Source of the DNA: Escherichia phage AV125
DNA length: 64,000 nt
Sequence record: OR352955.1
Direction: 5' to 3' (one strand)
A program made the position numbers and the translations under genes. Below the pieces are notes generated by a model, which worked only from the letters and a program-made list of their open reading frames with translations, did not search any database and was not told the DNA's origin. Each line of letters starts with the position of its first letter. The first letter of the stretch is position 1. Positions 16,266-28,120 of the stretch are shown here, piece by piece.

Positions 16266-16450
16266 TTACAAAAGTGAAAGTTGAAAACCAAAATTTAAAG
16301 TTTAGGAAAATTATCTTAAAATGTCAGATACAAAACAAAACTCAAAAGTCAAGGAAAATTTTAAAAATTTTGCGCGCCCACAGTATTTAAAGTTTTTTTG
16401 CTTTTACAAAAATGAAAGTACAAAAGCAAAATTTAAAGTTTACAAAAATT
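16266..16450. repeat. AT-rich direct repeats (iteron-like), 2 full copies of ~48 bp plus partial copy
   Basis: TTTACAAAAgTGAAAGT...CAAAATTTAAAGTTTAggAAAATT at 16266-16313 and 16403-16450; partial AAAGTCAAGGAAAATTTT at 16346-16364. Confidence 0.6.
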
Positions 16451-16465
16451 TTTATGCAGGTGAAA

Positions 16466-16580
16466 ATGAGAAGAGTTCTCATATGGAAATGCAAATGATA
16501 ATGATTCGCATTTAAGTTTATAAATGAGATTGATTCTTATTTAATAAGGTAAATGACAATCATTCTCATTTAGAGAATGA
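16466..16580. promoter_or_regulatory. cluster of operator-like inverted repeats built on half-site ATGAGAA/TTCTCAT
   Basis: ATGAGAA-gag-TTCTCAT (16466-16482); 27-bp near-palindrome AAATGCAAATGATAATGATTCGCATTT (16487-16513); CATTCTC-attta-GAGAATG (16561-16579). Confidence 0.5.
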
Positions 16581-16799
16581 CGCGCAGGGGCGGTGTTTGT
16601 CTCGCGCTCCCGTGTCCCCTCGCCATGTAATAAGAATAACAGATCCAGCCAGGAAAGCAAGCGATTATTTTATCTTTACATTTCTTTACAAATATATAGC
16701 ACCCAGCCTACCGGCGATCAACCTTCCAACCAGTGCCCCCTGGTATGTTAGCCCCGCCTTTACGCCGTGGGGTGGCGCTTCCTCTTCTGTATGTAAAAC

Positions 16800-16828
16800 A
16801 GTATAAGCCCGATCCCTGGGCTTGTCAA
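16800..16828 (-). promoter_or_regulatory. sigma70-type promoter on minus strand, no obvious downstream ORF
   Basis: rc reads TTGACA (16828-16823) - 17 nt - TATACT (16805-16800); reads leftward into GC-rich segment. Confidence 0.45.
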
Positions 16829-16830
16829 GA

Positions 16831-17097
16831 TTATTTTTTGTTTTCTTGCCAGGATAGGACACCTAACCAAAAATACATATCGCCCCGCGCCCCTGGTGGT
16901 ATCTTGCTTTCCCCGCCGCCACTGCAAGCCCATAGATAACCATTTGCGAACGTATCAAAATGATCTATCTCTTCCACCTTATGATCGCCCAGGTTGAGAA
17001 CGGTTTCAACCTTTAAGCCCGTTGCGCTTGCTACCTGGTGCACCGTGCCGCCTTGCCAGCCCAATGAGTGCATAAGGTGTAATGTAGTATTTGTCAT
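16831..17097 (-). CDS. small hypothetical protein (88 aa) inside a GC-rich insert, antisense to flanking genes
   Basis: ORF track; GC-rich codons (GGC, GCG, CAG) unlike surrounding AT-rich genes. Confidence 0.4.
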   Translation of the reverse strand: MTNTTLHLMHSLGWQGGTVHQVASATGLKVETVLNLGDHKVEEIDHFDTFANGYLWACSGGGESKIPPGARGDMYFWLGVLSWQENKK

Positions 17098-17205
17098 GAT
17101 ATCGCCCTTTCTTTGTTGTGCGCCCTGGTTGGCGCGGTAGAAAGATAATAGCCCTTTTCTTTATATATAGCAAGCAAAAAGAAAATAAAAAAGATTGAAA
17201 AATGG

Positions 17206-17263
17206 TTGACGTTAACCAGGCGGCGGCGTAGTATTCATCTTGTAGGGCGGCAATGGTGCCGCT
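17206..17263 (+). promoter_or_regulatory. early promoter + leader stem-loop cassette 1
   Basis: TTGACG 17206; -10 TAGTAT 17229; hairpin GCGGCA-atgg-TGCCGC 17246-17263. Confidence 0.55.
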
Positions 17264-17283
17264 CACTATTTGGAGTTAAGATC

Positions 17284-17481
17284 ATGGCAACATTGCACAT
17301 TGTGGCGAAAGCTGGACAAATCAACGTAGTGGTAAACGGTTTTACTGAGTTCAGTCACCCCCAGGATGATCATGAAACGGTTTTATCTTTCATTGATTCC
17401 CTGTTAGAAATGGGAGTCATTACAGAAGACCAGCACGCTACAAAATGCAAGCGCGTTAATCAAATTGCAGGAATAGAATAA
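17284..17481 (+). CDS. small early protein (65 aa)
   Basis: Start moved to ATG 17284 after GGAG; track start 17206 is TTG of -35 box. Confidence 0.5.
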   Translation: MATLHIVAKAGQINVVVNGFTEFSHPQDDHETVLSFIDSLLEMGVITEDQHATKCKRVNQIAGIE

Positions 17482-17487
17482 AAAGTA

Positions 17488-17547
17488 TTGACAACAAACA
17501 ACAACCTGATAAGATGTATCACATAGGGCGGCGGAATGGTCCACCGC
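17488..17547 (+). promoter_or_regulatory. early promoter + leader stem-loop cassette 2
   Basis: TTGACA 17488; TAAGAT 17510; hairpin GGCGGCGGA-atgg-TCCACCGC. Confidence 0.55.
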
Positions 17548-17572
17548 TCACAACAGAAGAGAGATTATCATC

Positions 17573-17845
17573 ATGGCATCATATAGCGCAACAATGATCG
17601 TAGCTGGCACCACTGGTAAACCTATGCGCGGTGGCGGATCTTTCGCTAATATCAATATTGACGGGCGTTTATCCCTGGACGCAGCGATCACCGTGGCGCG
17701 GGAAACATTTAAGAAAGAATGTAAATTCAATAAACAAGATTATCTCGGTTTTGCTATTGAAAAAACCGCGCGCTTTGTTGATTATAAAAGCCCGAAAATG
17801 GTTGACACTACATTAAAAGCGCAAGATGTAGCGTTTTTGTTTTAA
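17573..17845 (+). CDS. small early protein (90 aa)
   Basis: ORF track; AGAGAGA upstream. Confidence 0.5.
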   Translation: MASYSATMIVAGTTGKPMRGGGSFANINIDGRLSLDAAITVARETFKKECKFNKQDYLGFAIEKTARFVDYKSPKMVDTTLKAQDVAFLF

Positions 17846-17848
17846 GGC

Positions 17849-17904
17849 TTGACATTAACGAATAATTTGTTAATATGTTACATAAAGCGGGAATAGTTCC
17901 CGCT
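17849..17904 (+). promoter_or_regulatory. early promoter + leader stem-loop cassette 3
   Basis: TTGACA 17849; TAATAT 17871; hairpin GCGGGAA-tag-TTCCCGC. Confidence 0.55.
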
Positions 17905-17921
17905 ATTTGTAAGGTGGTAGA

Positions 17922-18179
17922 ATGTTTTACATCAAATTAAAAGGTCACGTGATCGCGTTCAAAGATAACGCTTTTTACAGATTAGCAAAATATGCGTTAA
18001 TACATCCCCACTATGTTTATATAAGGGGGCGTGATGAAATAAATATCTTTGATCAAACAACATGCGAGAACATCGAGATCCGCAAGGTTGGCGTACGTGA
18101 TTATCGTACATCTTTCTACCCTTGCAAGGATTCAGCAAGTCTTTTTAAAGTATGCCAATTGTTGAAAAAAGGTGGTTAA
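17922..18179 (+). CDS. small early protein (85 aa)
   Basis: ORF track. Confidence 0.5.
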   Translation: MFYIKLKGHVIAFKDNAFYRLAKYALIHPHYVYIRGRDEINIFDQTTCENIEIRKVGVRDYRTSFYPCKDSASLFKVCQLLKKGG

Positions 18180-18180
18180 T

Positions 18181-18738
18181 ATGGGCCGCGAATATGTGAT
18201 CCAGTCTTGGGTAAAACATGAAGCAGATGATCCGCGCATCATTCCCGATCATCTTATCGATGAATCCACGGGATATAGTGGTGAGCAAATAGGTAACAGA
18301 TTAGCACGTAGTAACGGCAACGTAAAAGCGCGTTATGTGCGCCCTGGCTGGCTGGCAAATGGTAACGCTGATTTATCCAGTGCGGAAGATGCGAGCGACG
18401 GCGCGAAAGATAATCCTTTGTACAAAGTTGATCCAGCTTTTCGTGTCCTGGATGAATACCCCAGCAAGATAGCGGCGCTCGATCAGGCCCTGGAAAGTAA
18501 GCGCATCACCTGGACCGCTTACAACATGGCAAAAAACGTACTTGATAGTAAATTGATTCAAGCTGAAAGAAAATTAGCCAAAATTGCAGCCATAGCCCAG
18601 GAGGAAGACGAGGAGACAACGGAAGAGGAAGAGTACGAAGAGATCCCGCCGTTGTTGTGTGTTGATGCTTTTCCTGATTATCAGCCGACAGAGGAAGAAA
18701 AAAGGATCGCACTAGAAAACTTTGAAAATAGTCTTTGA
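18181..18738 (+). CDS. hypothetical protein (185 aa), acidic C-terminal tail
   Basis: Track ORF 18172 (GTG) shortened to ATG 18181 after AAGGTGG. Confidence 0.5.
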   Translation: MGREYVIQSWVKHEADDPRIIPDHLIDESTGYSGEQIGNRLARSNGNVKARYVRPGWLANGNADLSSAEDASDGAKDNPLYKVDPAFRVLDEYPSKIAALDQALESKRITWTAYNMAKNVLDSKLIQAERKLAKIAAIAQEEDEETTEEEEYEEIPPLLCVDAFPDYQPTEEEKRIALENFENSL

Positions 18739-18791
18739 CATATCGCCGCCACTGGCATAATATTTACCACGTAGGGCGGCAATGGTGCCGC
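18735..18791 (+). promoter_or_regulatory. early promoter + leader stem-loop cassette 4
   Basis: TTGACA 18735; TAATAT 18758; hairpin GGGCGGCAATGGTGCCGC. Confidence 0.55.
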
Positions 18792-18820
18792 TCATAGTGA
18801 AATTATGCAAGAGGCTTACA

Positions 18821-18916
18821 ATGATTAATAAAGAAAATAGCTTGACGGTTGGAACGATTAACGCTATCATTCTAGCCGTTCCATTTTGGGTTGTAGTAGC
18901 GGCTATTATTTTCTAA
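18821..18916 (+). CDS. tiny hydrophobic peptide (31 aa)
   Basis: Own translation MINKENSLTVGTINAIILAVPFWVVVAAIIF after cassette 4. Confidence 0.3.
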   Translation: MINKENSLTVGTINAIILAVPFWVVVAAIIF

Positions 18917-18924
18917 AAATATTC

Positions 18925-18985
18925 TTGACAACGTTTTTTAATCTGATAAGATGTATCACATAGGGCGGCGGAATACTTCCCCGCC
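18925..18985 (+). promoter_or_regulatory. early promoter + leader stem-loop cassette 5
   Basis: TTGACA 18925; TAAGAT 18947; hairpin GGCGGCGGAATACTTCCCCGCC. Confidence 0.55.
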
Positions 18986-19006
18986 AAAACAAAAAAGGGT
19001 AACACA

Positions 19007-19369
19007 ATGAGCAAGCAAATCAATACTATCATGTTTAATCTGGTATCTTTCCGCGATGATATGAAAAATTTACCACGTGAAACGGTTGATATTCATGTTT
19101 CAGCTTATCGCGCCCTTATTGACATGTTACCGCTAAAACGTGATCAACATGCCGCTAATATGATGCTTAATGCTATGCTTAAAAAGATGATTCAAACGGA
19201 TCTTACTCTGGCGTATGAGTATCAAGGGCGCTTATATGCGACTTACAACAAAGCGGTACCTGGTCTGGGAAGTACCGAAGAGTTGCACGGCTTAAACCTG
19301 GATCAAAACACTTGGGATAGTATGCGCCGCGTTATGGTATGGGCCGAAAGCGGTAAAATTTACGAATAA
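19007..19369 (+). CDS. small early protein (120 aa)
   Basis: ORF track. Confidence 0.55.
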   Translation: MSKQINTIMFNLVSFRDDMKNLPRETVDIHVSAYRALIDMLPLKRDQHAANMMLNAMLKKMIQTDLTLAYEYQGRLYATYNKAVPGLGSTEELHGLNLDQNTWDSMRRVMVWAESGKIYE

Positions 19370-19375
19370 AAACGG

Positions 19376-19435
19376 TTGACACTGTTTAAAATGCTGGTAT
19401 AGTTTATCACATAGGGCGGGAAGTGGTTTCCCGCC
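19376..19435 (+). promoter_or_regulatory. early promoter + leader stem-loop cassette 6
   Basis: TTGACA 19376; TATAGT 19398; hairpin GGCGGGAA-gtggt-TTCCCGCC. Confidence 0.55.
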
Positions 19436-19457
19436 AACAATGAAAAAGGTTATCATC

Positions 19458-19823
19458 ATGGCTATTAATATTAATGTTTCCGCTTATGCTACCCTGGCTA
19501 ACACGGCTAAAATTGAATTATCCAGCATTGAGGCGGTGCATATTAGCGCCCGTCGCTGGTTTCAACAGTCCTACGGTAACACGTATTTTTCTTTAATGGT
19601 TGACGTTGAGATCGGCGGTAAACTGATCGAGGTGGTTAACGTTCCGTTTCAATATGGCTATGGTGATCATTTTGATACCGTCGCCCTGGAAGAATTTAGC
19701 AAGGTTATCAACCTTGAGGGCAAGGAATTTTCACGCGGCGCGTATCTTTCCCGTTTTTGCCGTGACAATGGGATCACTGTATACAGTCATGCAAGCGATG
19801 TTAAACGTAAAAAAGATCTATAA
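19458..19823 (+). CDS. small early protein (121 aa)
   Basis: Start moved to ATG 19458, the conserved atcatcATGgc context shared with other cassettes. Confidence 0.5.
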   Translation: MAININVSAYATLANTAKIELSSIEAVHISARRWFQQSYGNTYFSLMVDVEIGGKLIEVVNVPFQYGYGDHFDTVALEEFSKVINLEGKEFSRGAYLSRFCRDNGITVYSHASDVKRKKDL

Positions 19824-19829
19824 AAAGCA

Positions 19830-19888
19830 TTGACAGCACGAATAAAAAGAGTAAACTGTATTACATAGAGAGCGGGAACACTTCCCGC
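19830..19888 (+). promoter_or_regulatory. early promoter + leader stem-loop cassette 7
   Basis: TTGACA 19830; TAAACT 19852; hairpin GCGGGAA-cac-TTCCCGC. Confidence 0.55.
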
Positions 19889-19912
19889 CTCACTGAAAAA
19901 GAGAGAAAAATC

Positions 19913-20152
19913 ATGGCTAAATCTAAAATGTACAACGGTCACAAAAACAAAACTCATTGGAATGTAAGCCTGTGGATTAATAACGATGAGGGATTGTATC
20001 GGTTTGCATTGGGATTGATCAATGAGTGCGGTAATAAAGATCAGGCGGCTGATTTAATGTGCTACCGTTTGAAACAGGATGGAATCACTACAACGCCAGA
20101 CGGCTTTAAGTATAGTAAAACTGCAATCCGCGCCGCTATGGTTGGAATGTAA
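19913..20152 (+). CDS. small early protein (79 aa)
   Basis: ORF track. Confidence 0.5.
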   Translation: MAKSKMYNGHKNKTHWNVSLWINNDEGLYRFALGLINECGNKDQAADLMCYRLKQDGITTTPDGFKYSKTAIRAAMVGM

Positions 20153-20161
20153 TAAAAACAG

Positions 20162-20221
20162 TTGACAACGTTTAAAATTAGTGTAAGATGTATCACATAG
20201 GGCGGGAAGTGGTTTCCCGCC
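20162..20221 (+). promoter_or_regulatory. early promoter + leader stem-loop cassette 8
   Basis: TTGACA 20162; TAAGAT 20184; hairpin GGCGGGAAGTGGTTTCCCGCC. Confidence 0.55.
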
Positions 20222-20243
20222 AACAACAGAGAGATTAAAGATT

Positions 20244-20471
20244 ATGGCTATCAATATTGTTCGTGTATCCGGCACCGTTGGCAGTTCCCAGGTTGTAGCA
20301 GTTGTAACAAACAAAAAGATTAATGATGTATGTGAGATCTTGAATAAGTGGGCTATTGCTAATTTTGGGGAATATGCAAGCGTTGAGTACATCGAATCCT
20401 GCCAGGTGCCGACCATCAGCCTAACCGATCTCAACGTTGATCGCCTGTTATGCCTGGATGAATTAATCTGA
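20244..20471 (+). CDS. small early protein (75 aa)
   Basis: ORF track. Confidence 0.5.
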   Translation: MAINIVRVSGTVGSSQVVAVVTNKKINDVCEILNKWAIANFGEYASVEYIESCQVPTISLTDLNVDRLLCLDELI

Positions 20472-20480
20472 AAAAGATTG

Positions 20481-20536
20481 TTGACACGGGAAAGAAAAAG
20501 AGTAAACTGTATTACGTAGGGCGGCAATAGTGCCGC
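20481..20536 (+). promoter_or_regulatory. early promoter + leader stem-loop cassette 9
   Basis: TTGACA 20481; TAAACT 20503; hairpin GGCGGCA-atag-TGCCGC. Confidence 0.55.
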
Positions 20537-20561
20537 TCACAACAGAAGAGAGATTATCACG

Positions 20562-20777
20562 ATGGCTAATATCCGTACACTGTTAAAAAATGCAAGTCAA
20601 GTTTTATTTTCAGATGACGAGTATTTCAACAAAGACATTACAGGCGTGAAAAATTTAAAAGACGTGAAGGATGTTATCGGTATCCGTGGATCTTTACGTA
20701 AAGGTGATATATACGGTAACAAGGTGCAATATAAACTGTCAAAAGATTATGATTTTACTTTGACAATTATTTCATAA
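20562..20777 (+). CDS. small early protein (71 aa)
   Basis: ORF track. Confidence 0.5.
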   Translation: MANIRTLLKNASQVLFSDDEYFNKDITGVKNLKDVKDVIGIRGSLRKGDIYGNKVQYKLSKDYDFTLTIIS

Positions 20778-20783
20778 AACCGC

Positions 20784-20845
20784 TTGCAATCTTAATAAAA
20801 TAAAGTAAACTGTATTACATCAAGGCGGCGGAATGGTCCACCGCC
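20784..20845 (+). promoter_or_regulatory. early promoter + leader stem-loop cassette 10
   Basis: TTGCAA 20784; TAAACT 20806; hairpin GGCGGCGGAATGGTCCACCGCC. Confidence 0.5.
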
Positions 20846-20869
20846 TAACAAAGAGAAGAGGAAAATATT

Positions 20870-21037
20870 ATGATCACTTTCGCTACCCGTGAAGCCGCTC
20901 GCAACGTTGCCCGTAAAGTTAACGCCGCCAACCTGGGCGCTACACTTAAAGCCCCGGTAAAAGATGCATCAGGCGCGTGGATCTTCCCTGGTCTGCGTCA
21001 CGCTGATAAGCTAGGCACTTTAAGCCTTAAAAAATAA
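20870..21037 (+). CDS. small early protein (55 aa)
   Basis: Own translation MITFATREAARNVARKVNAANLGATLKAPVKDASGAWIFPGLRHADKLGTLSLKK; not in ORF track (below 60 aa). Confidence 0.4.
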   Translation: MITFATREAARNVARKVNAANLGATLKAPVKDASGAWIFPGLRHADKLGTLSLKK

Positions 21038-21040
21038 TCG

Positions 21041-21078
21041 TTGACTTTTCGTTATAGCGCCTTATAATGGGCGCTATA
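21041..21078 (+). promoter_or_regulatory. early promoter cassette 11, variant in which the stem-loop encloses the -10 box
   Basis: TTGACT 21041; TATAAT 21063 lies in loop of TAGCGCC...GGCGCTA hairpin. Confidence 0.45.
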
Positions 21079-21111
21079 GAGAAGAGAAACCACTACTAAC
21101 AAGGAAACATC

Positions 21112-21333
21112 ATGATCACTTTCGCTATTGTCGCCGTTGTCGCTGGTCAGGTTTACGTAAACGAGACATTTACTACAGAAGACAAGGCCGCAGGAGATAT
21201 AACCGCCGTTTACAACGAGTGCAAGGCAGTAGAAAGGATGTTAGCGCCTTGTATGCTAATGAGTGAACGCCAGGACGGGATAACAGTATTTACTAACATT
21301 GAAACAGGGTACCAAATGGTAGTAACAAAATAA
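21112..21333 (+). CDS. small early protein (73 aa)
   Basis: ORF track; N-terminus MITFA shared with 20870 ORF. Confidence 0.5.
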   Translation: MITFAIVAVVAGQVYVNETFTTEDKAAGDITAVYNECKAVERMLAPCMLMSERQDGITVFTNIETGYQMVVTK

Positions 21334-21336
21334 AGC

Positions 21337-21393
21337 TTGACACGGATTTAATTTTCAGTAAACTGTTACACGTAGGGCGGGAATAGTTCCCGC
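21337..21393 (+). promoter_or_regulatory. early promoter + leader stem-loop cassette 12
   Basis: TTGACA 21337; TAAACT 21359; hairpin GCGGGAATAGTTCCCGC. Confidence 0.55.
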
Positions 21394-21412
21394 TCAAAAA
21401 GAGAGAAAGACC

Positions 21413-21766
21413 ATGAAAGCACAAAATGCAATTAAAGAGTACATCCTTGCCGCTATCGATTTTAATGATTACGGTATTACAACCGAAAAAGAGAAGATCG
21501 CGGAATTGATGCGCCGTTTTAATTCCGAGTACTGGTACCCTGATAACCAATCACGTTTTAATTATAGTATTGTTAAAGCACTTGCATCATGGTTACAAGG
21601 TTTGCCATCAGATATCAATATCGCTTTCGAATATTGGGAAATTGATCGCCTGTTAACATCCTGGGGATACATTAAAGAGAATAGCCGCGATGATAAAATC
21701 CAACGAGAAAGGGAAAATTATTGGCTTTATATTGCAGGCGTGATCCTTGCTTGCTCTTATGAATGA
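21413..21766 (+). CDS. small early protein (117 aa)
   Basis: ORF track. Confidence 0.55.
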   Translation: MKAQNAIKEYILAAIDFNDYGITTEKEKIAELMRRFNSEYWYPDNQSRFNYSIVKALASWLQGLPSDINIAFEYWEIDRLLTSWGYIKENSRDDKIQRERENYWLYIAGVILACSYE

Positions 21767-21772
21767 TAAACC

Positions 21773-21826
21773 TTGACAATTTTACAAAACAGTTTAAATT
21801 AACAATATAGCGGCAATGGTGCCGCT
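21773..21826 (+). promoter_or_regulatory. early promoter + leader stem-loop cassette 13
   Basis: TTGACA 21773; TAAATT near 21795; hairpin GCGGCAATGGTGCCGC. Confidence 0.5.
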
Positions 21827-21845
21827 CATATGAAGAGGAAACAAA

Positions 21846-21992
21846 ATGAATACATCTAATCGCGCAGAAAAAATTCAATCTTCCAAGATCCGCAAGGCCT
21901 GGAACGAGGAAGTGATCCGCAAAGGCGACAAGCGTAATAAAACAAAGCGCGGGAAGAGTGACAAATATAATTGGATGGATTTAGAGGATTAA
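21846..21992 (+). CDS. small basic protein (48 aa)
   Basis: Own translation MNTSNRAEKIQSSKIRKAWNEEVIRKGDKRNKTKRGKSDKYNWMDLED. Confidence 0.35.
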   Translation: MNTSNRAEKIQSSKIRKAWNEEVIRKGDKRNKTKRGKSDKYNWMDLED

Positions 21993-22000
21993 CATAACAA

Positions 22001-22026
22001 GGGCGCATCAAGCGCCCTTTCTTTTT
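22001..22026 (+). terminator. intrinsic terminator (copy 1 of a repeated terminator)
   Basis: GGGCGC-atcaa-GCGCCC then TTTCTTTTT; identical hairpin at 26912. Confidence 0.65.
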
Positions 22027-22047
22027 ACATGTAGAGGATAAACAAAA

Positions 22048-22233
22048 ATGACTTTAAACGAGCTTAAAACAGCCTACAACGCAACATTAAAAATAGCTGT
22101 GCGTTACCGTGATGCGTACGGTTTTATCGCGCAGGGCGTGATCCTGGGCTTTTCTGACGATGGTTTGATCTATGTTGATGCACATCACAACAAGGTTAAA
22201 CCGGAAAACGTTATCAATATAAAATATCTTTAA
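22048..22233 (+). CDS. small early protein (61 aa)
   Basis: ORF track. Confidence 0.45.
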   Translation: MTLNELKTAYNATLKIAVRYRDAYGFIAQGVILGFSDDGLIYVDAHHNKVKPENVINIKYL

Positions 22234-22239
22234 AAGTGG

Positions 22240-22298
22240 TTGACACCATAACCGGACCTGTTAAACTGTATTACATCAGGCGGGGAATAGTTCCCCAC
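22240..22298 (+). promoter_or_regulatory. early promoter + leader stem-loop cassette 14
   Basis: TTGACA 22240; TAAACT 22262; hairpin GGGGAA-tag-TTCCCC. Confidence 0.55.
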
Positions 22299-22318
22299 CA
22301 TACAAAAAGGTAAATATT

Positions 22319-22525
22319 ATGATCACCGCAAAACAAGAAAAAATCATTATCGACGTTGCAGCCGTTGCCGCTATTGCTATTATTGGATCTTATTATGATA
22401 CCCGTTTCCCGTCGGCTATGCATGAGATCGCCGCCGTTGCATCAGTTGGCGTGCTGTTTTACGTTGGTAAACGCTATTTATCACCAATGATTAACAAGCT
22501 GACACCGTGGAAAAATAAAGGTTGA
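22319..22525 (+). CDS. small membrane protein (68 aa)
   Basis: ORF track; hydrophobic IIIDVAAVAAIAIIGSYY. Confidence 0.5.
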   Translation: MITAKQEKIIIDVAAVAAIAIIGSYYDTRFPSAMHEIAAVASVGVLFYVGKRYLSPMINKLTPWKNKG

Positions 22526-22576
22526 TCCTGTTTTACATTGTGTTATAGTTATCGTGTAGGGCGGCAATGGTGCCGC
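22522..22576 (+). promoter_or_regulatory. early promoter + leader stem-loop cassette 15
   Basis: TTGATC 22522; TATAGT 22544; hairpin GGCGGCAATGGTGCCGC. Confidence 0.5.
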
Positions 22577-22596
22577 GCCCCTTTGAGGATGCAATC

Positions 22597-22881
22597 ATGA
22601 GTAAAGCTAACACCGTGCTAATGTTTTCCCTGATTAATGATCTCGCTTACTTGTCCAACATGACGCAGGAGGGTAACACATTAACGGCAACATTCACCAA
22701 TAAGCTTGACCGAGTGATCATCATCTCACTGAAAACAGTTAGTAAAGGCTTTTACTCGTTAGCTTATCATTGGATCACCGATACCGATGAGACAAGCCAG
22801 GACTATAGCGCCCCTTTTCCTGAATCAATGGCACGGGAGATCATCGCCGCCGTTGTAAATGATGGTTTGTTTACTGCATAA
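22597..22881 (+). CDS. small early protein (94 aa)
   Basis: Start moved to ATG 22597 after GAGGATG; track start 22567 lies in the hairpin loop. Confidence 0.5.
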   Translation: MSKANTVLMFSLINDLAYLSNMTQEGNTLTATFTNKLDRVIIISLKTVSKGFYSLAYHWITDTDETSQDYSAPFPESMAREIIAAVVNDGLFTA

Positions 22882-22898
22882 ATAATTTAGAAAAAGGC

Positions 22899-22955
22899 TT
22901 GCAATCATTTTGAGATAGTGTATATTTAATTCATAGGGCGGCGGGAATAGTTCCC
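22899..22955 (+). promoter_or_regulatory. early promoter + leader stem-loop cassette 16
   Basis: TTGCAA 22899; TATATT 22921; hairpin GGGAA-tag-TTCCC. Confidence 0.5.
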
Positions 22956-22978
22956 AAAGCAAATGAGAGGATTACACG

Positions 22979-23098
22979 ATGAGCAAGTACACAGTAGAAT
23001 ACACGGTAGAAAATCCGGCAGTATCCGAAGGTAAAAAGATGACATTTGCCATCAGTATAATCGCTTTCGTTGTCACTATCTTATCAATCATCTTATAA
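22979..23098 (+). CDS. tiny membrane peptide (39 aa)
   Basis: Own translation MSKYTVEYTVENPAVSEGKKMTFAISIIAFVVTILSIIL after GAGAGGA. Confidence 0.35.
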   Translation: MSKYTVEYTVENPAVSEGKKMTFAISIIAFVVTILSIIL

Positions 23099-23108
23099 GG
23101 TGCACACC

Positions 23109-23270
23109 ATGAAAATAGCAGACATTATCAAAGAGATCGCCCTTGCCGCTGGCGTTGAGGTCGAGGAAGTGATCGCGCTCAATCTTACAGAAAACGATCT
23201 GCGCAACTATGAAGCGGAAAGCGTGAAAGCAAGCGGCGCGGTCCTGGTATATGATCCGGCTAACAAGTAA
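23109..23270 (+). CDS. small early protein (53 aa)
   Basis: Start at ATG 23109; track start 23070 would lie inside the preceding peptide gene. Confidence 0.4.
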   Translation: MKIADIIKEIALAAGVEVEEVIALNLTENDLRNYEAESVKASGAVLVYDPANK

Positions 23271-23390
23271 GGGGATAACATGAATCCGAAAGATATGCAA
23301 GCATGGAAAGGGTACGACGATCTAAGCGCCTTGCGCAATAAGTCAAGCCGTAACCTTAGACGGTTGGAAGCAAAGAAAAAGAAAAAATAG

Positions 23391-23446
23391 TTTGACAAGT
23401 CCGCGTAGTCTGGTAATATGTATCTTGTAGGGCGGCAATGGTGCCG
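23391..23446 (+). promoter_or_regulatory. early promoter + leader stem-loop cassette 17
   Basis: TTGACA 23391; TAATAT 23413; hairpin GGGCGGCAATGGTGCCGC. Confidence 0.55.
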
Positions 23447-23468
23447 CTCACAAGAAGAGAGAAAAATC

Positions 23469-23753
23469 ATGAAAATCACAAAAAGCCTGACTAATTATGC
23501 AGCACGTCGCGGATTATGTTTAACTGTTGAAAACTTAGGGAAAGAAGACTTTTTGTGTTTTTGGGAGCTTGAAAATGATTGCGAGTGGATGTTTTCTTAT
23601 TCTATCTGCGAAGATCAAAACGGTTGTTTGTTAACTTGGCGCGGTAATATCTATTTACCGGAAGAAATTAAAGAAGAGTTACCAGGTACGATCATGACAG
23701 AGAGACAGCTTAAGGAAGTGATCAATTTTGTAGGGCAAAACATTAAAAAATAA
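23469..23753 (+). CDS. small early protein (94 aa), cysteine/tryptophan-rich
   Basis: Start moved to ATG 23469; track start 23418 lies in the hairpin loop. Confidence 0.5.
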   Translation: MKITKSLTNYAARRGLCLTVENLGKEDFLCFWELENDCEWMFSYSICEDQNGCLLTWRGNIYLPEEIKEELPGTIMTERQLKEVINFVGQNIKK

Positions 23754-23754
23754 T

Positions 23755-23816
23755 TTGACAACAGGCAAACAACGTAGTAAAGTTTATTACATAGAGCGGC
23801 GGAATGGTCCACCGCT
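23755..23816 (+). promoter_or_regulatory. early promoter + leader stem-loop cassette 18
   Basis: TTGACA 23755; TAAAGT 23778; hairpin GCGGCGGAATGGTCCACCGC. Confidence 0.55.
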
Positions 23817-23838
23817 CACAACAGAAGAGAAACAAATC

Positions 23839-24009
23839 ATGATCCCGACTATGTTTTATGTATCGCGCAAAGGTCACAATATTTTTTGGTCTGAAGATTT
23901 AAATGAAGCTATGACGTTTGCCCGTGATCGTGTTGCTATCGGTGGCGTTAACATCACCGTAACCGATGAAAATGGCATTGAATACTATAACGGCAACGAT
24001 GAAGAATAA
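23839..24009 (+). CDS. small early protein (56 aa)
   Basis: Start ATG 23839 (MIPTMFYVSRKGHNIFW...); track start 23755 lies in promoter. Confidence 0.45.
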   Translation: MIPTMFYVSRKGHNIFWSEDLNEAMTFARDRVAIGGVNITVTDENGIEYYNGNDEE

Positions 24010-24015
24010 TTAATG

Positions 24016-24038
24016 AGGCGGGGGAGTATTCCCCGCCG
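24016..24038 (+). promoter_or_regulatory. intercistronic leader stem-loop with no promoter upstream
   Basis: GGCGGGGGA-gtat-TCCCCGCC immediately before RBS of 24057 gene. Confidence 0.5.
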
Positions 24039-24056
24039 TCAATAAAGAGGTAAATC

Positions 24057-24326
24057 ATGAAAATATCATTGGACGTTGCAATCAAGGCCATCGAATCCGG
24101 TTACATCCTGGTAAAAGATGATAAGGCTAAAACCGTGCACCACGTTAACAAAGAAACAGGCGAAAGCATGATCACATATAAAGCCGCCTACTTTCTCCAA
24201 TCAGTAGCAGATCCGCGCGTACAACGCCAGGTTACAGCGGCTATTGCTAAAAAATTATGTGCTTTACAGGGTATAAGTTTTAACGAGATCGCCCCGTGTT
24301 TTGACTGGTCGAGCTTGAAAAAATAG
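24057..24326 (+). CDS. small early protein (89 aa)
   Basis: ORF track. Confidence 0.5.
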   Translation: MKISLDVAIKAIESGYILVKDDKAKTVHHVNKETGESMITYKAAYFLQSVADPRVQRQVTAAIAKKLCALQGISFNEIAPCFDWSSLKK

Positions 24327-24327
24327 T

Positions 24328-24389
24328 TTGACAACAATTATAAATCGGGTAGAATGTATTTCGTAGGGCGGGGCAATAAGGCAACGCCC
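24328..24389 (+). promoter_or_regulatory. early promoter + variant leader stem-loop cassette 19
   Basis: TTGACA 24328; TAGAAT 24350; hairpin GGGCG...CGCCC. Confidence 0.5.
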
Positions 24390-24407
24390 ATTAATGAGGG
24401 TAGAATC

Positions 24408-24512
24408 ATGTTAGAGAAAATTTTCACGGTTGTAATAGTGGGCCTGGCGTTATCGGTTGGAGGGGTTGCAACTATGGCTAACATGATCCTATCTTCCCAC
24501 GGTATCGGCTAA
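24408..24512 (+). CDS. tiny membrane peptide (34 aa)
   Basis: Own translation MLEKIFTVVIVGLALSVGGVATMANMILSSHGIG. Confidence 0.3.
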   Translation: MLEKIFTVVIVGLALSVGGVATMANMILSSHGIG

Positions 24513-24522
24513 GGTGAAACAA

Positions 24523-24738
24523 ATGATCACGAATAAGACAGGTAAAACGGAATTTTTACGCGGCTTGCAAGTTGGTAAACCTGAGATCTGGCATTGTACT
24601 AAATCCGCGCATAATGAAATGAAAGATTTTACCGCTACTTTACAACGTGTTAAAATATCTATCACACAGAAAAAAGCCTTGTTAGTAGTAGAAAACGAGA
24701 TCCCGCAAACTATTATTATTGTCGAGCGTACAGCATGA
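24523..24738 (+). CDS. small early protein (71 aa)
   Basis: Track ORF 24514 (GTG) shortened to ATG 24523 after AAGGTG. Confidence 0.45.
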   Translation: MITNKTGKTEFLRGLQVGKPEIWHCTKSAHNEMKDFTATLQRVKISITQKKALLVVENEIPQTIIIVERTA

Positions 24739-25121
24739 AAACAGAAATCATTATTGAAATCATCAACGGTTATAAAGAAGCCTTTATTTTTGCTGAATCA
24801 GCAAGGGATCATGAAGGTAATTTTATTGAAAACTTAGACGATTATGATTTTTCTCCTAGCGCGGACGAACGGATCGCCCAGGATGTAACAGCCTTTATTA
24901 ATGCTAATCTTGCCGCTATCTCTGAGGCAATGAGCGACGGCGCAACAGCCAACCAGATCGGGAATGATTTACATTTTACCCGTAACGGTCACGGCGTAGG
25001 CTTTTGGGATCGCCCTGAAATATACACCACTAACACGGCGAACCGCCTAACCAATGCAGCTAAGTTTATGCCGAACGTGTCGGCTTACATTGGTGAAGAT
25101 AATTTGATTTATATTGAATAA
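24735..25121 (+). CDS. small early protein (128 aa)
   Basis: ATGA overlap with upstream gene. Confidence 0.55.
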   Translation: MKTEIIIEIINGYKEAFIFAESARDHEGNFIENLDDYDFSPSADERIAQDVTAFINANLAAISEAMSDGATANQIGNDLHFTRNGHGVGFWDRPEIYTTNTANRLTNAAKFMPNVSAYIGEDNLIYIE

Positions 25122-25127
25122 AAAGTA

Positions 25128-25183
25128 TTGACACAGATCGCCAGTGTGCTAATATTTACCACGTAGGGCGGCAATGGTGCCGC
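25128..25183 (+). promoter_or_regulatory. early promoter + leader stem-loop cassette 20
   Basis: TTGACA 25128; TAATAT 25150; hairpin GGGCGGCAATGGTGCCGCC. Confidence 0.55.
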
Positions 25184-25202
25184 CGATAATGAGGAAAGTA
25201 AA

Positions 25203-25502
25203 ATGGAAACTATCGCTATTGTTACCGTAGAAAAACTGGTTGTTGGTGATGTATTCGCGTTAATGGTGCCTAACAGCAGCAAGCTGGGCGCTTATGAAGT
25301 AATGGATCATAAAAATGAATCATTTGGCGACGGTTGCACAATGGCGGTAAAATCTTTAAAGGATGGAATCATCCGCCAGGCTAACTGGCACAAAGGGAAT
25401 CAAGTCGGTTTAATATCAGCTAATTTCTTGCCAGAAGAGCAAACGTTAGACCAACTATCAGGCGGTAAGACGTTAGCCGAACTACTGGAAACAGCGATCT
25501 AA
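25203..25502 (+). CDS. small early protein (99 aa)
   Basis: ORF track. Confidence 0.55.
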   Translation: METIAIVTVEKLVVGDVFALMVPNSSKLGAYEVMDHKNESFGDGCTMAVKSLKDGIIRQANWHKGNQVGLISANFLPEEQTLDQLSGGKTLAELLETAI

Positions 25503-25510
25503 TCAACAAA

Positions 25511-25526
25511 GGGGCGGCAACGCCCC
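25511..25526 (+). promoter_or_regulatory. intercistronic GNRA-type stem-loop
   Basis: GGGGCG-gcaa-CGCCCC, no T-run; precedes RBS of 25547 gene. Confidence 0.45.
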
Positions 25527-25546
25527 ACATCAGAAAGGAAAAGATT

Positions 25547-25783
25547 ATGAGTATTGCAACAGTATTAAACGCCGTTAAAACCGCTGAATCATCCGGCTTG
25601 CATGTTGAGCTTATAGATCAACCAGGTGGCGATCTCCTTGTCCAGGTTTACCCGCCGAAAGTAGGGGATGATTATTATTGGGCTTATTCTGATACGTTCG
25701 AACAAGTAGACACGAAAGCGATCACGGCTTTTATTTTAAAAGCTATTGAAGAAAATAACTTTCATCATAACATCAATCAATAA
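25547..25783 (+). CDS. small early protein (78 aa)
   Basis: ORF track. Confidence 0.5.
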   Translation: MSIATVLNAVKTAESSGLHVELIDQPGGDLLVQVYPPKVGDDYYWAYSDTFEQVDTKAITAFILKAIEENNFHHNINQ

Positions 25784-25792
25784 ACCATAAGC

Positions 25793-25808
25793 GGGGCGGT
25801 AACGCCCC
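25793..25808 (+). promoter_or_regulatory. intercistronic GNRA-type stem-loop
   Basis: GGGGCG-gtaa-CGCCCC, no T-run; precedes 25838 gene. Confidence 0.45.
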
Positions 25809-25837
25809 ATTAAACGCAATAGGAAGAGGATAGACGC

Positions 25838-26128
25838 ATGAAAAAGATGATCGCAGTAGTTGCCCTGGTTGTTGGTATTAACGCGCCTGTACTGGCTAAT
25901 GAGTTGCCAGAATCCATCACGCTAACCGATATCAACGCAATAAACCGGATCGGCGTTAATTATCGCCTATGCCTTGCCGCTAAAACTTTCCAGGACGGCA
26001 CGACAGAATACCACGGATTCGAGGGTATCCGCTGCGGTGAGCTTGCACGCGACCTTAAGGAAGATCCAGACCTTGAGGCCATACCGATGACCGTAAACGG
26101 TAAAGCTTACGTAAACCGCCAACAATGA
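25838..26128 (+). CDS. predicted secreted protein (96 aa)
   Basis: Signal-peptide-like MKKMIAVVALVVGINAPVLA. Confidence 0.55.
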   Translation: MKKMIAVVALVVGINAPVLANELPESITLTDINAINRIGVNYRLCLAAKTFQDGTTEYHGFEGIRCGELARDLKEDPDLEAIPMTVNGKAYVNRQQ

Positions 26129-26259
26129 GAAAGGTAATCATCACAATGGGGATCATAGTAGCGACACTGGCGCTTATCCCCTTCATGGTTGAATATGTGC
26201 TGATCAGTGTTGTCCTGGTAGTCAGTGACCTATTGGAAACGGTTGGCAACTGGTTTTAA
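26125..26259 (+). CDS. tiny membrane peptide (44 aa)
   Basis: Own translation MRKVIITMGIIVATLALIPFMVEYVLISVVLVVSDLLETVGNWF; ATGA overlap. Confidence 0.35.
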   Translation: MRKVIITMGIIVATLALIPFMVEYVLISVVLVVSDLLETVGNWF

Positions 26260-26436
26260 AAATAAGAAAAACAGGACTTGTTTTTGTTCTGTTTTTTGTT
26301 ATACTTATTGAACGGGCGGCACCTGGAAGCAGGGGAAGATAATCACCGGAAGACCCCGCTATATATTGATAACTAACGCCTATCAAACAACAAAACATCA
26401 AAGGAATAAACTATCAAATCTTTACAATTCTACCTA

Positions 26437-26480
26437 TTGACACCGGATCACGCTTACACTATTATTTATCACGTAGGGCA
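26437..26480 (+). promoter_or_regulatory. early promoter with conserved leader start but no stem-loop (cassette 21)
   Basis: TTGACA 26437; TATTAT 26460; TATCACGTAGGGC leader. Confidence 0.5.
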
Positions 26481-26511
26481 AACAATTTTAAACGGTAAAC
26501 GAGGAATCACC

Positions 26512-26895
26512 ATGAGCAATATCATCAACCTGGCAGCGACTGTAAACGGTAAAGACTTTAACGGCGCTGTAGACCGTGATCCTATGTGGTGCTTGTCAGT
26601 GTTTAAAGGCGATCTGGTTGAAGTTAGAACAACCGAAGGTTATAGCGATGATTATAAATGCGAGATTCATTTACATAATTGGTACACGGGTAAAACTTAT
26701 GCGCTGAATCACGCGTTTATCGGGAAAATTGAATATCGCGAGATGATCGACGATGAAACGGGGCAAGATTTTAGCGAAAACGTTTATATTCGTTCCGAGA
26801 CATTAGCCGAACGTTTGATCGAGAAAATGAAAGCAAAAAATAAAATTAATTTATCTCATTGGATTGATATAACAAATGATCCGGCTTATCAGTAA
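26512..26895 (+). CDS. hypothetical protein (127 aa)
   Basis: Start moved to ATG 26512 after GAGGAA; track start 26437 is the TTG of the -35 box. Confidence 0.55.
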   Translation: MSNIINLAATVNGKDFNGAVDRDPMWCLSVFKGDLVEVRTTEGYSDDYKCEIHLHNWYTGKTYALNHAFIGKIEYREMIDDETGQDFSENVYIRSETLAERLIEKMKAKNKINLSHWIDITNDPAYQ

Positions 26896-26911
26896 ATAAC
26901 ATTTCATACCA

Positions 26912-26937
26912 GGGCGCATCAAGCGCCCTTTCTTTTT
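26912..26937 (+). terminator. intrinsic terminator (copy 2 of repeated terminator)
   Basis: GGGCGC-atcaa-GCGCCC then TTTCTTTTT, identical to 22001-22026. Confidence 0.65.
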
Positions 26938-26999
26938 GCCCGAATAATGTTGATAGCTTTCGCCTATGAAAAACCGACACAGAACAAAACTGAATAAAT

Positions 27000-27420
27000 C
27001 ACGGTATCGAGCTAATCGACCATTAAACGAATAACCATACATCCCAGGGCAACAGGCTGTTAGAGAGCTATTTAGAGCGGTTAAAATCGATCAACAACCA
27101 ACAACAAACCATCAAAAACACCCTTTTACCTCTTTTCTAGTGCAATGATAACCATTATCATCTATCATTGATTATCTATTCAATATAAGTGCATAACTAT
27201 AATGTTGATAATAGTTCGCAACAACTAACCAACAAACAACATAAAACAATAAGCAAACTAATCATAATCAAAGGAATAATAGCAAGATGACTGATAACGA
27301 CAAACAATCAAACCATGATGAATATTAAACAAGATAACGATAACACGACAAAACAACCAACTAACGAACAATAACAAACGAAACCATTAAAAGATCAACT
27401 ATTAGCAAAATAGTGTATAT
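27000..27420. other. noncoding A/C-rich tract, strongly G- and T-depleted on plus strand
   Basis: Long runs such as aaccaacaaacaacataaaacaataagcaaactaatcataatc; no ORF on either strand. Confidence 0.6.
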
Positions 27421-27505
27421 TGCCATAATAGTGACTGAATGAAATCATTACAAAACGAATCATTCCAAGGATCATCATTAGCACGCTACGCCGGACACGT
27501 AGCGA

Positions 27506-27633
27506 GCTAATAATAAGCCAACTACACCCCAACAATCATAACCATCGGTGATGGTTATTTCTTGTTACTGCGTAGCTTGCAATAATTGCAAGCGTAATGA
27601 CGCTTACACTTATTGCGCTGGCTTATTATTAGC
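27506..27633. repeat. 128-bp element bounded by perfect 15-bp inverted repeats, with nested palindromes
   Basis: GCTAATAATAAGCCA (27506-27520) vs TGGCTTATTATTAGC (27619-27633); inside: ATAACCATC-ggt-GATGGTTAT (27538-27558), TTGCAAT-a-ATTGCAA (27577-27591), AAGCGT-aatg-ACGCTT. Confidence 0.6.
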
Positions 27634-28091
27634 ATTATATGTAATTACTAAGATCATAACATTAGCGCAATAACAATAATCATTGTAATAGTTACAAGAT
27701 GAGATCATTAGCAAGATGAATAATTGCACGTAGCAACATGAGCGAATAGCGACAGGTTGCATAGTGTGCACATAGTGTATAAACATACAAGAAAATAAAG
27801 GCTAATCTTTTGGGGGCGAATACTATCGCTACGCGATATGTTGAGCACCTTCTCTTAAACGTAAATAAAATCAGAATAATCTTGATTTATTTTAGTTTTT
27901 ATGTTAATAAACGTTTAAATAATAATCATTCTCATATAAATAATAGTCTGCTTGTCATGAGCGGGATCAGTTGACAATGTTCCGTCATATGATGAAGTTG
28001 CCAAACCATTGATAAATAAGTGTTTGTGTGATTTATAATCAAGTGGCCCACCTTGTCGCTACGTTGGTATGAGCCTTGCATAAGTCATTGA

Positions 28092-28120
28092 ATACGAATG
28101 ATAATTATTCTCATTCGTAT
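28092..28120. promoter_or_regulatory. operator-like inverted repeat sharing the ATGAGAA/TTCTCAT half-site
   Basis: ATACGAATGA-taattattc-TCATTCGTAT; related AATCATTCTCAT at 27924-27935. Confidence 0.45.

Follow-up and report, generated by a model that had tools for sequence, protein, structure and literature searches.

A promoter and leader-hairpin cassette reiterated 19 times in a small-gene array of Escherichia phage AV125

Genes and cassettes of the array

Positions 17206-26937 of a stretch of 64,000 nucleotides (the window) from Escherichia phage AV125 (OR352955.1) hold an array of small genes interspersed with copies of one regulatory element, a sigma-70-type promoter followed by a GC-rich hairpin. 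The region matches genomes of Phapecoctavirus, a genus of phAPEC8-like E. coli myophages of ~150 kb in the subfamily Stephanstirmvirinae, and most closely that of KKP 3954, with 95.8% identity across the full 9.7 kb. Altogether 236 phage records match, and nearly all of the genes under the match are labeled 'hypothetical protein'. A preliminary description, made from the sequence alone, had spoken of ~30 small genes, and the count bears this out: 31 open reading frames (ORFs) of 31-185 aa, all on the plus strand, each with a purine-rich ribosome-binding region before it. The record of phage tuntematon shows an equivalent series of small plus-strand genes, beginning past a short divergent gene and an AT-rich non-coding stretch. 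The best explanation of the region is that it is the hyperplastic early-gene region of Phapecoctavirus, in which a regulatory cassette of ~80 bp has been reiterated 19 times.

Pfam families could be assigned to only three of the 31 products, leaving 28 without, and the PHROG families listed for them have no function attached. Four of the products (from 18821, 22979, 24408 and 26125) are predicted membrane peptides of 31-44 aa with a hydrophobic segment. A role of this cargo in host takeover or anti-defence is a plausible guess. That the genes act early is presumed from the type of promoter and the relatives of the cargo (T7 gp1.1-like, T4 gp30.8-like).

17284..26895, + strand: array of 31 small ORFs (ORF reading, Pfam/PHROG search)
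19913-20152, + strand: DUF7249 ORF (Pfam)
21846-21992, + strand: T7 gp1.1-like ORF (Pfam)
26512-26895, + strand: T4 gp30.8-like ORF (Pfam)

The plus strand of the array carries 21 promoters, and 19 of them are followed by a hairpin, which lies 9-12 nt past the -10 box. These cassettes stand ahead of single genes or of small sets of genes. The preliminary description had claimed at least 20 cassettes; the reiterated combination of promoter and hairpin is real, but the number of full cassettes is 19, since the promoters at 21041 and 26437 have no hairpin. The promoters are near-consensus: TTGACA is exact in 16 of the 21, the spacer is 16-17 bp, the -10 box has the form TAnnnT, and a TG precedes it in eight cases. 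The promoter at 21041 is the sole one in the array with a perfect TATAAT.

17206..17264, + strand: cassette 1, TTGACG-N17-TAGTAT, hairpin GGGCGGCA/TGCCGCTC
17488..17549, + strand: cassette 2, TTGACA-N16-TAAGAT, hairpin GGGCGGCGGA/TCCACCGCTC with one C.A mismatch
17849..17905, + strand: cassette 3, TTGACA-N16-TAATAT, hairpin AGCGGGAA/TTCCCGCT
18735..18793, + strand: cassette 4, TTGACA-N17-TAATAT, hairpin GGGCGGCA/TGCCGCTC
18925..18985, + strand: cassette 5, TTGACA-N16-TAAGAT, hairpin GGCGG(C)GGAA/TTCCCCGCC
19376..19435, + strand: cassette 6, TTGACA-N16-TATAGT, hairpin GGCGGGAA/TTCCCGCC
19830..19891, + strand: cassette 7, TTGACA-N16-TAAACT, hairpin GAG(A)GCGGGAA/TTCCCGCCTC
20162..20221, + strand: cassette 8, TTGACA-N16-TAAGAT, hairpin GGCGGGAA/TTCCCGCC
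20481..20538, + strand: cassette 9, TTGACA-N16-TAAACT, hairpin GGGCGGCA/TGCCGCTC
20784..20846, + strand: cassette 10, TTGCAA-N16-TAAACT, hairpin AGGCGGCGGA/TCCACCGCCT
21041..21080, + strand: promoter without leader hairpin, TTGACT-N16-TATAAT; inverted repeat ATAGCGCC/GGCGCTAT across the -10 box (the usual geometry of the T4-type elements called PeSLs, promoter-early-stem-loop modules)
21337..21395, + strand: cassette 11, TTGACA-N16-TAAACT, hairpin GGGCGGGAA/TTCCCGCTC
21773..21827, + strand: cassette 12, TTGACA-N16-TAAATT, hairpin AGCGGCA/TGCCGCT
22240..22299, + strand: cassette 13, TTGACA-N16-TAAACT, hairpin GGCGGGGAA/TTCCCCACC with a C.A mismatch
22522..22578, + strand: cassette 14, weak -35 box TTGATC, -10 box TATAGT, hairpin GGCGGCA/TGCCGC; z -0.23
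22899..22960, + strand: cassette 15, TTGCAA-N16-TATATT, degenerate hairpin with the outer 3' arm lost; -7.8 kcal/mol, z -0.68
23392..23449, + strand: cassette 16, TTGACA-N16-TAATAT, hairpin GGGCGGCA/TGCCGCTC
23755..23817, + strand: cassette 17, TTGACA-N17-TAAAGT, hairpin GAGCGGCGGA/TCCACCGCTC
24328..24389, + strand: cassette 18, TTGACA-N16-TAGAAT, hairpin GGGCG(14-nt loop)CGCCC
25128..25184, + strand: cassette 19, TTGACA-N16-TAATAT, hairpin GGCGGCA/TGCCGCC
26437..26482, + strand: promoter without hairpin, TTGACA-N17-TATTAT, with CACGTAGGGC present and the 3' arm absent; drives the gp30.8-like gene

Aligned on their -10 boxes, the cassettes follow a common order: an A-rich, UP-like tract, usually with the stop codon of the upstream gene in it, then TTGACA, a spacer of essentially random sequence, (TG)TAnnnT, an AT-rich discriminator GTATYAC, a purine, TAG, a GC-rich hairpin of 7-10 bp, and finally an A/purine-rich unstructured linker that holds the ribosome-binding site. 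Across five lineages, 9-12 nt (mostly 10-11) separate the -10 box from the 5' base of the hairpin. The distance from the 3' end of the hairpin to the ATG, about 17-35 nt, is variable, unlike the fixed distance to the promoter. Transcription was assumed to start at a purine 7-8 nt past the -10 box, according to general rules for E. coli start sites, which would place the hairpin at about +4 to +25 of the predicted transcript. In all 19 leaders so predicted, the hairpin lies 0-5 nt from the assumed 5' end, and the linker, Shine-Dalgarno sequence and AUG are essentially unpaired. The minimum free energies of the leaders range from -7.8 to -16.8 kcal/mol, with z <= -2.2 in 16 of the 19; the weak scores belong to the leaders at 18771 (-1.46), 22933 (-0.68) and 22556 (-0.23).

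The element is confined to the array. Exact copies of TAGGGCGG number 13, all on the plus strand in 17243-25171, and none lies elsewhere in the 64 kb. To search for less exact copies, a covariance model (R1) was built from a manual structural seed of 17 copies, with N treated as a gap, because MAFFT alignment of the raw hairpins misregistered their 3' arms. Run with filters off over the 64 kb, R1 found 17 hits at E<0.3, all on the plus strand in 17241-25189. Outside the array, it found nothing in the window better than E=0.88, apart from one reverse-strand reading of the palindromic cassette at 20819. In B15, a complete relative of 150 kb, R1 finds 20 copies, all on a single strand in a block of 9.3 kb, plus one marginal hit outside that block. 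Counted from the promoters, such a hairpin accompanies 16 of 40 promoter-like sites on the plus strand of the window (essentially all in the array) as against one of 25 on the minus strand. Rfam 15 gave no match at its gathering score in the window and none at E up to 1 in 15900-28600.

Conservation of pairing and occurrence in other phages

The preliminary description held that the structure of the stem, and not its sequence, is under selection. The first half of this claim is upheld by several comparisons. In the copies from the window, 91.5% of cells are paired, as against 37-54%, or at the widest 37-63%, when the partner is slid, although two-sided changes occur at only two pairs, GCGG/CCGC being invariant. 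Adding tuntematon, a Klebsiella phage of the Stephanstirmvirinae and the rV5-like phage PDX brings two-sided changes to 5 of 11 pairs, and an independent set of relatives has them at 7 of 11 pairs in 48 cells, a score reached in 0 of 500 shuffles; the alignments were fitted to R1, and the covariation results lean towards the model on that account. When the distinct variant hairpins were folded as extracted, 23 of the 27 reached -9.6 kcal/mol or better. Among the other four, the hairpin of the cassette at 20162 (L010) had been clipped in extraction, its true fold being -11.3 kcal/mol, and three are weaker. The second half of the claim fails within the genus, where the outer stem GCGG/CCGC and the TAG preceding it are nearly invariant, so that sequence and structure are both conserved there.

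The clearest evidence for selection on structure comes from 82 orthologous cassette pairs, drawn from the window and seven relatives. The percentage of positions that differ is 0% in the -35 box, 3.5% in the -10 box, 2.8% in the hairpin stem, 8.9% in the hairpin loop and 9.5% in the promoter spacer, with 3.4%/2.6%/8.5% at codon positions 1/2/3. By this measure, the stems are as constrained as replacement codon positions, and the loops are not.

These figures bear on the most modest account of the hairpin, that it has no function and is a passenger hitch-hiking with a recently amplified promoter cassette. The many paralogous copies are indeed near-identical, and there is evidence of concerted evolution. 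However, stem divergence between orthologues equals that of codon positions 1-2, and among paralogues the promoter spacers have been essentially randomized while the stems were kept. Moreover, position and pairing persist, with different stems, in Stephanstirmvirinae, Vequintavirus and Asteriusvirus. The passenger account is disfavored and seems very improbable.

The preliminary description had named absence of the hairpin from related phages as grounds against it; the element turned out to be present in the relatives. A promoter with a hairpin 9-12 nt past the -10 box, built of other stems, is found in Justusliebigvirus PD06, in Klebsiella phage phi1_175008 and in an IMG/VR contig. In Vequintavirus PDX the same layout is built on stems that include GGGGCAA/TTGCCCC and GGCGGGAAAACTTCCCGCC; in the jumbo phage 121Q (Asteriusvirus), TTGCAA-N17/18-TATAAT-GTTTTACATC precedes hairpins of the kind GGTGGGGAA/TTCCCCACT or GGGGAGAA/TTCTCCCC. 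R1, tuned to Phapecoctavirus, barely sees the 121Q variants. In 121Q (NC_025447.1, 137-144 kb), the cassettes of promoter and leader hairpin form an array of their own ahead of small genes; several of the regions between genes there hold AGTACT-rich inverted repeats as well, such as CAGTACTATTGA...TGATAGTACTG over a -10 box.

Cassette-like sequence occurs in 147 phage records, nearly all of them relatives of phAPEC8, phi92 or rV5; a search of 5,426 complete E. coli genomes drew no match to the cassette. A scan of IMG/VR for the pattern TTGACA-N16/17-TANNNT-N7/9-TAGGGCGG returned 63 stretches, with clusters of hits only in phAPEC8/phi92/rV5-like contigs; most of the 63 were set aside as an unrelated promoter of ~40-kb phages, with no hairpin and a chance TAGGGCGG. 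A 117-aa cargo protein, used as a query for related loci, led to a single IMG/VR locus. The searchable literature yielded no description of the leader hairpin for phAPEC8-, rV5- or 121Q-type phages, though absence there is not proof. The rV5 paper lists sigma-70 promoters only, two genome papers only count promoters and terminators, and searches for transcriptomes of these genera brought up no study.

So wide an occurrence, with so constant a TAG and outer stem inside the genus, brings to mind a regulon tag, in which the hairpin together with UAG-GGCGG would be bound by a trans-acting phage or host protein that co-ordinates all early transcripts, for example through a timed shut-off, selective protection, antitermination or the control of translation. 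Among paralogues the promoter spacer is much less conserved than the outer stem and the TAG, the element is confined to one gene class in one genome block, and the layout persists across three myovirus lineages. Against such a tag, the loops diverge like third codon positions (8.9% vs 8.5%); the stem length, loop size (3-14 nt) and stem sequence vary (e.g., GGGGCAA/TTGCCCC and GGGGAGAA/TTCTCCCC); the TAG is not retained in 121Q; no Rfam family appears even at E up to 1; and no candidate binding protein was identified. We give the idea a small but appreciable chance.

Terminators, recombination and the role of the hairpin

A GC-rich hairpin of 7-10 bp between genes is also what one expects of an intrinsic terminator, and the hairpins have been so labeled. 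In GenBank MZ726793.1 (phage ASO2A), a 'rho-independent terminator predicted by WebGeSTer' lies 10-12 nt past 'promoter' features and before further genes. The cassette hairpins, however, lack the 3' U-tract of intrinsic terminators and stand 10 nt downstream of a -10 box. A plus-strand scan for T-tracts passed none of the 19 cassette hairpins and none of three further hairpins that have no promoter, and it did pass two canonical terminators, one inside the array and one closing it.

21999..22026, + strand: canonical intrinsic terminator inside the array, GGGCGC..GCGCCC then T-tract
26911..26937, + strand: canonical intrinsic terminator closing the array (T-tract scan)
24017..24037, + strand: promoterless intergenic hairpin, GGCGGGGGA-gta-TTCCCCGCC, no T-tract
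25511..25526, + strand: promoterless intergenic hairpin, GGGGCG-GCAA-CGCCCC, T-rich tail on the minus strand only
25792..25809, + strand: promoterless intergenic hairpin, CGGGGCG-GTAA-CGCCCCA, T-rich tail on the minus strand only

The two terminators are 97% identical over 30 nt (ACMAGGGCGCATCAAGCGCCCTTTCTTTTT; 21997-22026 and 26908-26937) and divide the array into two blocks rich in promoters. Judging by the locus_tag numbering quoted in the annotation of SKA64, the phAPEC8 record seems to begin close to the first terminator. Since no hairpin has a U-tract, the 'terminator' labels are unlikely to be right, and those of MZ726793 are probably a systematic mis-annotation of leader hairpins.

The three promoterless hairpins had been described as the same hairpin as that of the cassettes. 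They do exist and are of the same general type, but by the covariance model they are not the same: R1 gives the one at 24017-24037 a score of 11.1 bits (E 1.4) and does not detect those at 25511-25526 and 25792-25809 (GGGGCG-GNRA-CGCCCC). The latter two resemble GGGGCGACAAGCGCCCC, a leader variant found after promoters in relatives, and may be terminators against antisense transcription entering the early region. Genes 24057, 25547 and 25838 each have such a hairpin upstream and no promoter, and an efficient terminator at these sites would therefore silence them.

The preliminary description proposed a resemblance, found here to be close, between this array and the PeSLs described in the T4-type phages RB49/phi1, T4/PST and KVP40/nt-1 (Arbiol et al. 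2010, PMC2839356; Comeau et al. 2014, PMC4122927). Both have an upstream AT-rich tract with a stop codon (A-rich here), a near-consensus sigma-70 promoter, a stem-loop whose stem joins a G-run to a C-run, a Shine-Dalgarno sequence and a start codon; both occupy a hyperplastic, ORFan-rich region, with cassettes at the junctions of indels and replacements between close relatives and crossovers within the cassette. The stems here, GGGCGG.../...CCGCYC at -8 to -17 kcal/mol, are of the PeSL kind. From the sequence, then, the array is best classed as a variant of the T4-type PeSLs, and its number and uniformity, which had been called striking, are less unprecedented than implied, since arrays of PeSLs had already been described. 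There are also differences. The PeSL stem-loop has five different placements, the commonest being the spacer between the two promoter boxes and the -10 box itself, and has been read as a terminator or attenuator of upstream transcription, while in this array the hairpin is fixed downstream of the predicted start (+4 to +25) after 19 of 21 promoters, has no U-tract and lies within its own mRNA. The carrier here is an unrelated myovirus group. Classical PeSL geometry is seen only at promoter 21041 and at a minus-strand promoter, 16800-16828. The latter is a near-consensus TTGACA-N17-TATACT whose spacer holds the GC inverted repeat AAGCCC..GGGCTT; the repeat also scores as the terminator of an 88-aa minus-strand gene (16831-17097), so that promoter and terminator are combined in the classical manner.

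Might the hairpins of the array nevertheless be PeSL-type attenuators or terminators, damping upstream transcription so that each gene depends mainly on its own promoter? The labels in MZ726793, set directly after promoter features, agree with this, and the stem-loop of a phi1 PeSL cut lacZ expression as strongly as rrnB T1 did (PMC2839356). Some damping might also be wanted, as 19 promoters in the same direction with two canonical terminators would otherwise lead to steeply cumulative transcription. But the T-tracts present at 21999 and 26911 are missing from every hairpin, three genes stand behind promoterless hairpins, and what stays constant is the spacing between the -10 box and the hairpin, not that between the hairpin and the stop codon upstream. 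Furthermore, the hairpin lies past the start of its own promoter, where an efficient terminator would abort the promoter's own transcripts. We consider attenuation unlikely.

Cassette-mediated exchange, suggested earlier as something that comparison of junctions across relatives might reveal, is supported in part. Crossovers inside cassettes are evident in two relatives. In SKA64, two cassettes flank an extra gene, and the sequence of the window changes partner inside TAGGGCGGCAATGGTGCCGC; PD06 likewise has an extra gene, and the window joins the left promoter to the right hairpin, crossing over at CGTAGGGCGG. At eight orthologous sites, one whole type of hairpin has been swapped for another. 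Chaining of synteny against six relatives yielded 40 unique breakpoints, 22 of them in cassettes that cover 18% of the region (binomial p ~2e-7), but this enrichment is not separable from that of intergenic DNA in general. In PeSLs, crossovers have been mapped within or beside the stem-loop, and their authors speculated that a protein recognizes the GGGG...CCCC motif in recombination (PMC2839356, PMC4122927). A further mark of PeSLs is the formation of encapsidated mini-circles by recombination between cassettes.

All of this could be taken to mean that the element works in DNA only, as a recombination hotspot, a cruciform, the target of a recombinase or a repressor operator over +1, with no function in RNA. 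The crossovers inside TAGGGCGG and hairpin sequence, the swapping of hairpin types between orthologous sites and the speculation of the PeSL authors would all suit this, and the span from +1 to +25 would be a good place for an operator that turns early promoters off. Yet homologous recombination needs no palindrome, and homology alone would not hold stems at 2.8% with loops at 8.9%. The half-sites GGGCGG/CCGCYC are 8, 9, 11 or 12 bp apart, unlike a fixed dimeric operator. Finally, on the transcribed sense strand, G.U cells outnumber A.C cells by 15 to 6, an excess that lends mild support to plus-strand RNA as the form on which selection may act. A role confined to DNA appears quite unlikely.

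The reading we favor, with somewhat better than even confidence, is that the cassette combines an early promoter with a protective or insulating hairpin at the 5' end of the transcript and doubles as portable homology for the shuffling of genes. It is favored because the hairpin keeps a constant distance from the promoter and a varying one from the start codon. Host RNA polymerase would fire all cassette promoters on entry of the phage, and the primary transcripts would open with a stable hairpin, preceded by 0-4 unpaired nucleotides and with a pyrimidine at +2. Such a 5' end would be a poor substrate for RppH and for 5'-end-dependent RNase E, as well as an obstacle to scanning by RNase E, and the mRNA would live longer for it. 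The hairpin would also keep the ribosome-binding site open regardless of the gene plugged in behind. In read-through RNA and at the promoterless sites, hairpins would serve as barriers to decay between cistrons rather than as terminators. Meanwhile, in DNA, the cassettes would provide homology by which recombination could insert, delete or replace single genes and swap hairpin types.

The enzymology is congenial to this proposal. Two unpaired 5' nucleotides are the minimum for both RppH and RNase E, and both prefer three or more; RppH also disfavors a pyrimidine at +2 and is blocked by a 5'-terminal stem-loop (PMC8833179). A review covers the dependence of RNase E on the 5' end and the classical stabilizers of the 5' stem-loop type (PMC3997798). 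The predicted leaders of the cassettes (R-U-A, hairpin, open ribosome-binding site) fit a design that would hinder RppH and RNase E.

There are precedents for structured leaders. The leader hairpin of T7 gene 10 is one 5'-terminal stabilizer stem-loop. Those of ompA and papA (PMC3997798) are others and, like the predicted leaders of the cassettes, combine a stable hairpin a few nt from the 5' end with an open ribosome-binding region; they are single leaders whose function was tested, while here there are 19 near-identical predicted leaders in one phage region. Lambda nut/boxB and HK022 put also place structured RNA immediately downstream of early phage promoters. The cassettes differ from these in having one short hairpin before every gene instead of one or two sites per operon, no boxA-like partner, no two-stem put architecture, no Rfam match and no conservation of the loop sequence.

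Several considerations weigh against a protective 5' hairpin. The searchable literature contains no transcript 5' ends, timing or half-lives for this phage group. A start at the purine 8 nt past the -10 box would leave 3-4 unpaired nucleotides in most leaders, and RppH and RNase E could still use ends of that length, making protection partial or borderline. The near-invariance of TAG-GGCGG among paralogues exceeds the needs of pairing. Promoterless hairpins are not 5'-terminal unless the RNA is processed. Among T4-type phages, the PeSL stem-loop of phi1 acted like a strong terminator in the lacZ assay mentioned above. And as for shuffling, 22 of the 25 non-coding breakpoints lie in cassettes, as against 76% expected, so that cassette enrichment merges with intergenic enrichment.

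Other leads came to nothing. An RNase III site was rejected, the stems being only 7-10 bp. A sigma-70-dependent pause element was rejected as well: TAGGGC at +2 comes without the -7 T of a -10-like hexamer. The likeness of CAC-A-TAGGG to the start of the T7 promoter, CACTATAGGG, was judged coincidental given the canonical -35 and -10 boxes. Srd of T4 stimulates RNase E, and with such a protein at work it would make sense to protect 5' ends. In the rV5 paper gp11 is described as Srd-like, but a tblastn search with rV5 gp011 at E up to 0.01 turned up no homologue in either the window or complete B15, and the lead was dropped.

Flanking sequences and wider meaning

The last larger gene ahead of the array (15480-16022, + strand) encodes a NADAR-domain protein (Pfam PF08719, E 3.4e-35). 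The NADAR family reverses ADP-ribosylation, and the gene is a possible counter-defence gene. It is followed by ~800 bp of AT-rich non-coding DNA (16023-16830) containing two copies of a 72-nt direct repeat (16241-16312 and 16379-16450, 82% identical), three copies of a 29-nt unit, and a 23-nt inverted repeat (16521-16543 / 16550-16572). The tuntematon record marks a repeat_region at the counterpart of this stretch, which could be an origin or a regulatory region. Near the end of the array, the fold of the non-coding stretch 26300-26436 is unremarkable (z +0.33). The ~1.5 kb downstream of the array (26937-28457) holds several copies of AACAACAAAMCATCAAA and is free of ORFs longer than 65 aa, of tRNA genes and of Rfam matches; large indels set relatives apart there, with gaps of 400-1300 bp. 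A separate conserved module occurs in two copies on the minus strand, at 8200-8340 and 42495-42635, each consisting of TTGACTTTTTTCAAAAAATATGSTACCCT (a promoter with extended -10), a short hairpin of differing sequence and an identical box, CGAGCGATAGCGAGTA.

Some Phapecoctavirus genomes, ~96% identical to coliphages, are filed under other hosts: MG065650, MG065639 and others ('Campylobacter phage B15', 'A150'), OP562383 ('Acinetobacter phage') and OR584014 ('Pseudomonas phage'). The Campylobacter record B15 is marked UNVERIFIED, and the host labels on these records look doubtful.

There are practical consequences. The 'terminator' annotations in deposited genomes can be corrected, and the cassette offers a sharp marker of the accessory early-gene region, the likely seat of host-takeover and counter-defence genes, as well as ready-made parts for phage engineering and synthetic biology.

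A bolder extension is that the hairpin marks the whole class of early transcripts for a trans-acting factor or pathway common to Stephanstirmvirinae, Vequintavirinae and Asteriusvirus, for example by making the early mRNAs of the phage selectively immune to a phage-triggered program of host-mRNA decay, or by permitting the timed silencing of all tagged messages. If true, this would be a post-transcriptional regulon defined by 5' structure, beyond a generic stabilizer; it is a minor prospect, though one worth stating.

If instead the 5' hairpin works in the protective or insulating manner that we favor, these phages would possess a natural standardized expression cassette, made up of a strong promoter, a 5' structure that protects or insulates, and a ribosome-binding site that stays open. 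Such a cassette could take any small gene behind it, its homology would move genes in and out, and cassette-mediated shuffling of the PeSL type would extend past the T4-type phages to three further groups of large coliphages, tied to a function at the level of RNA.

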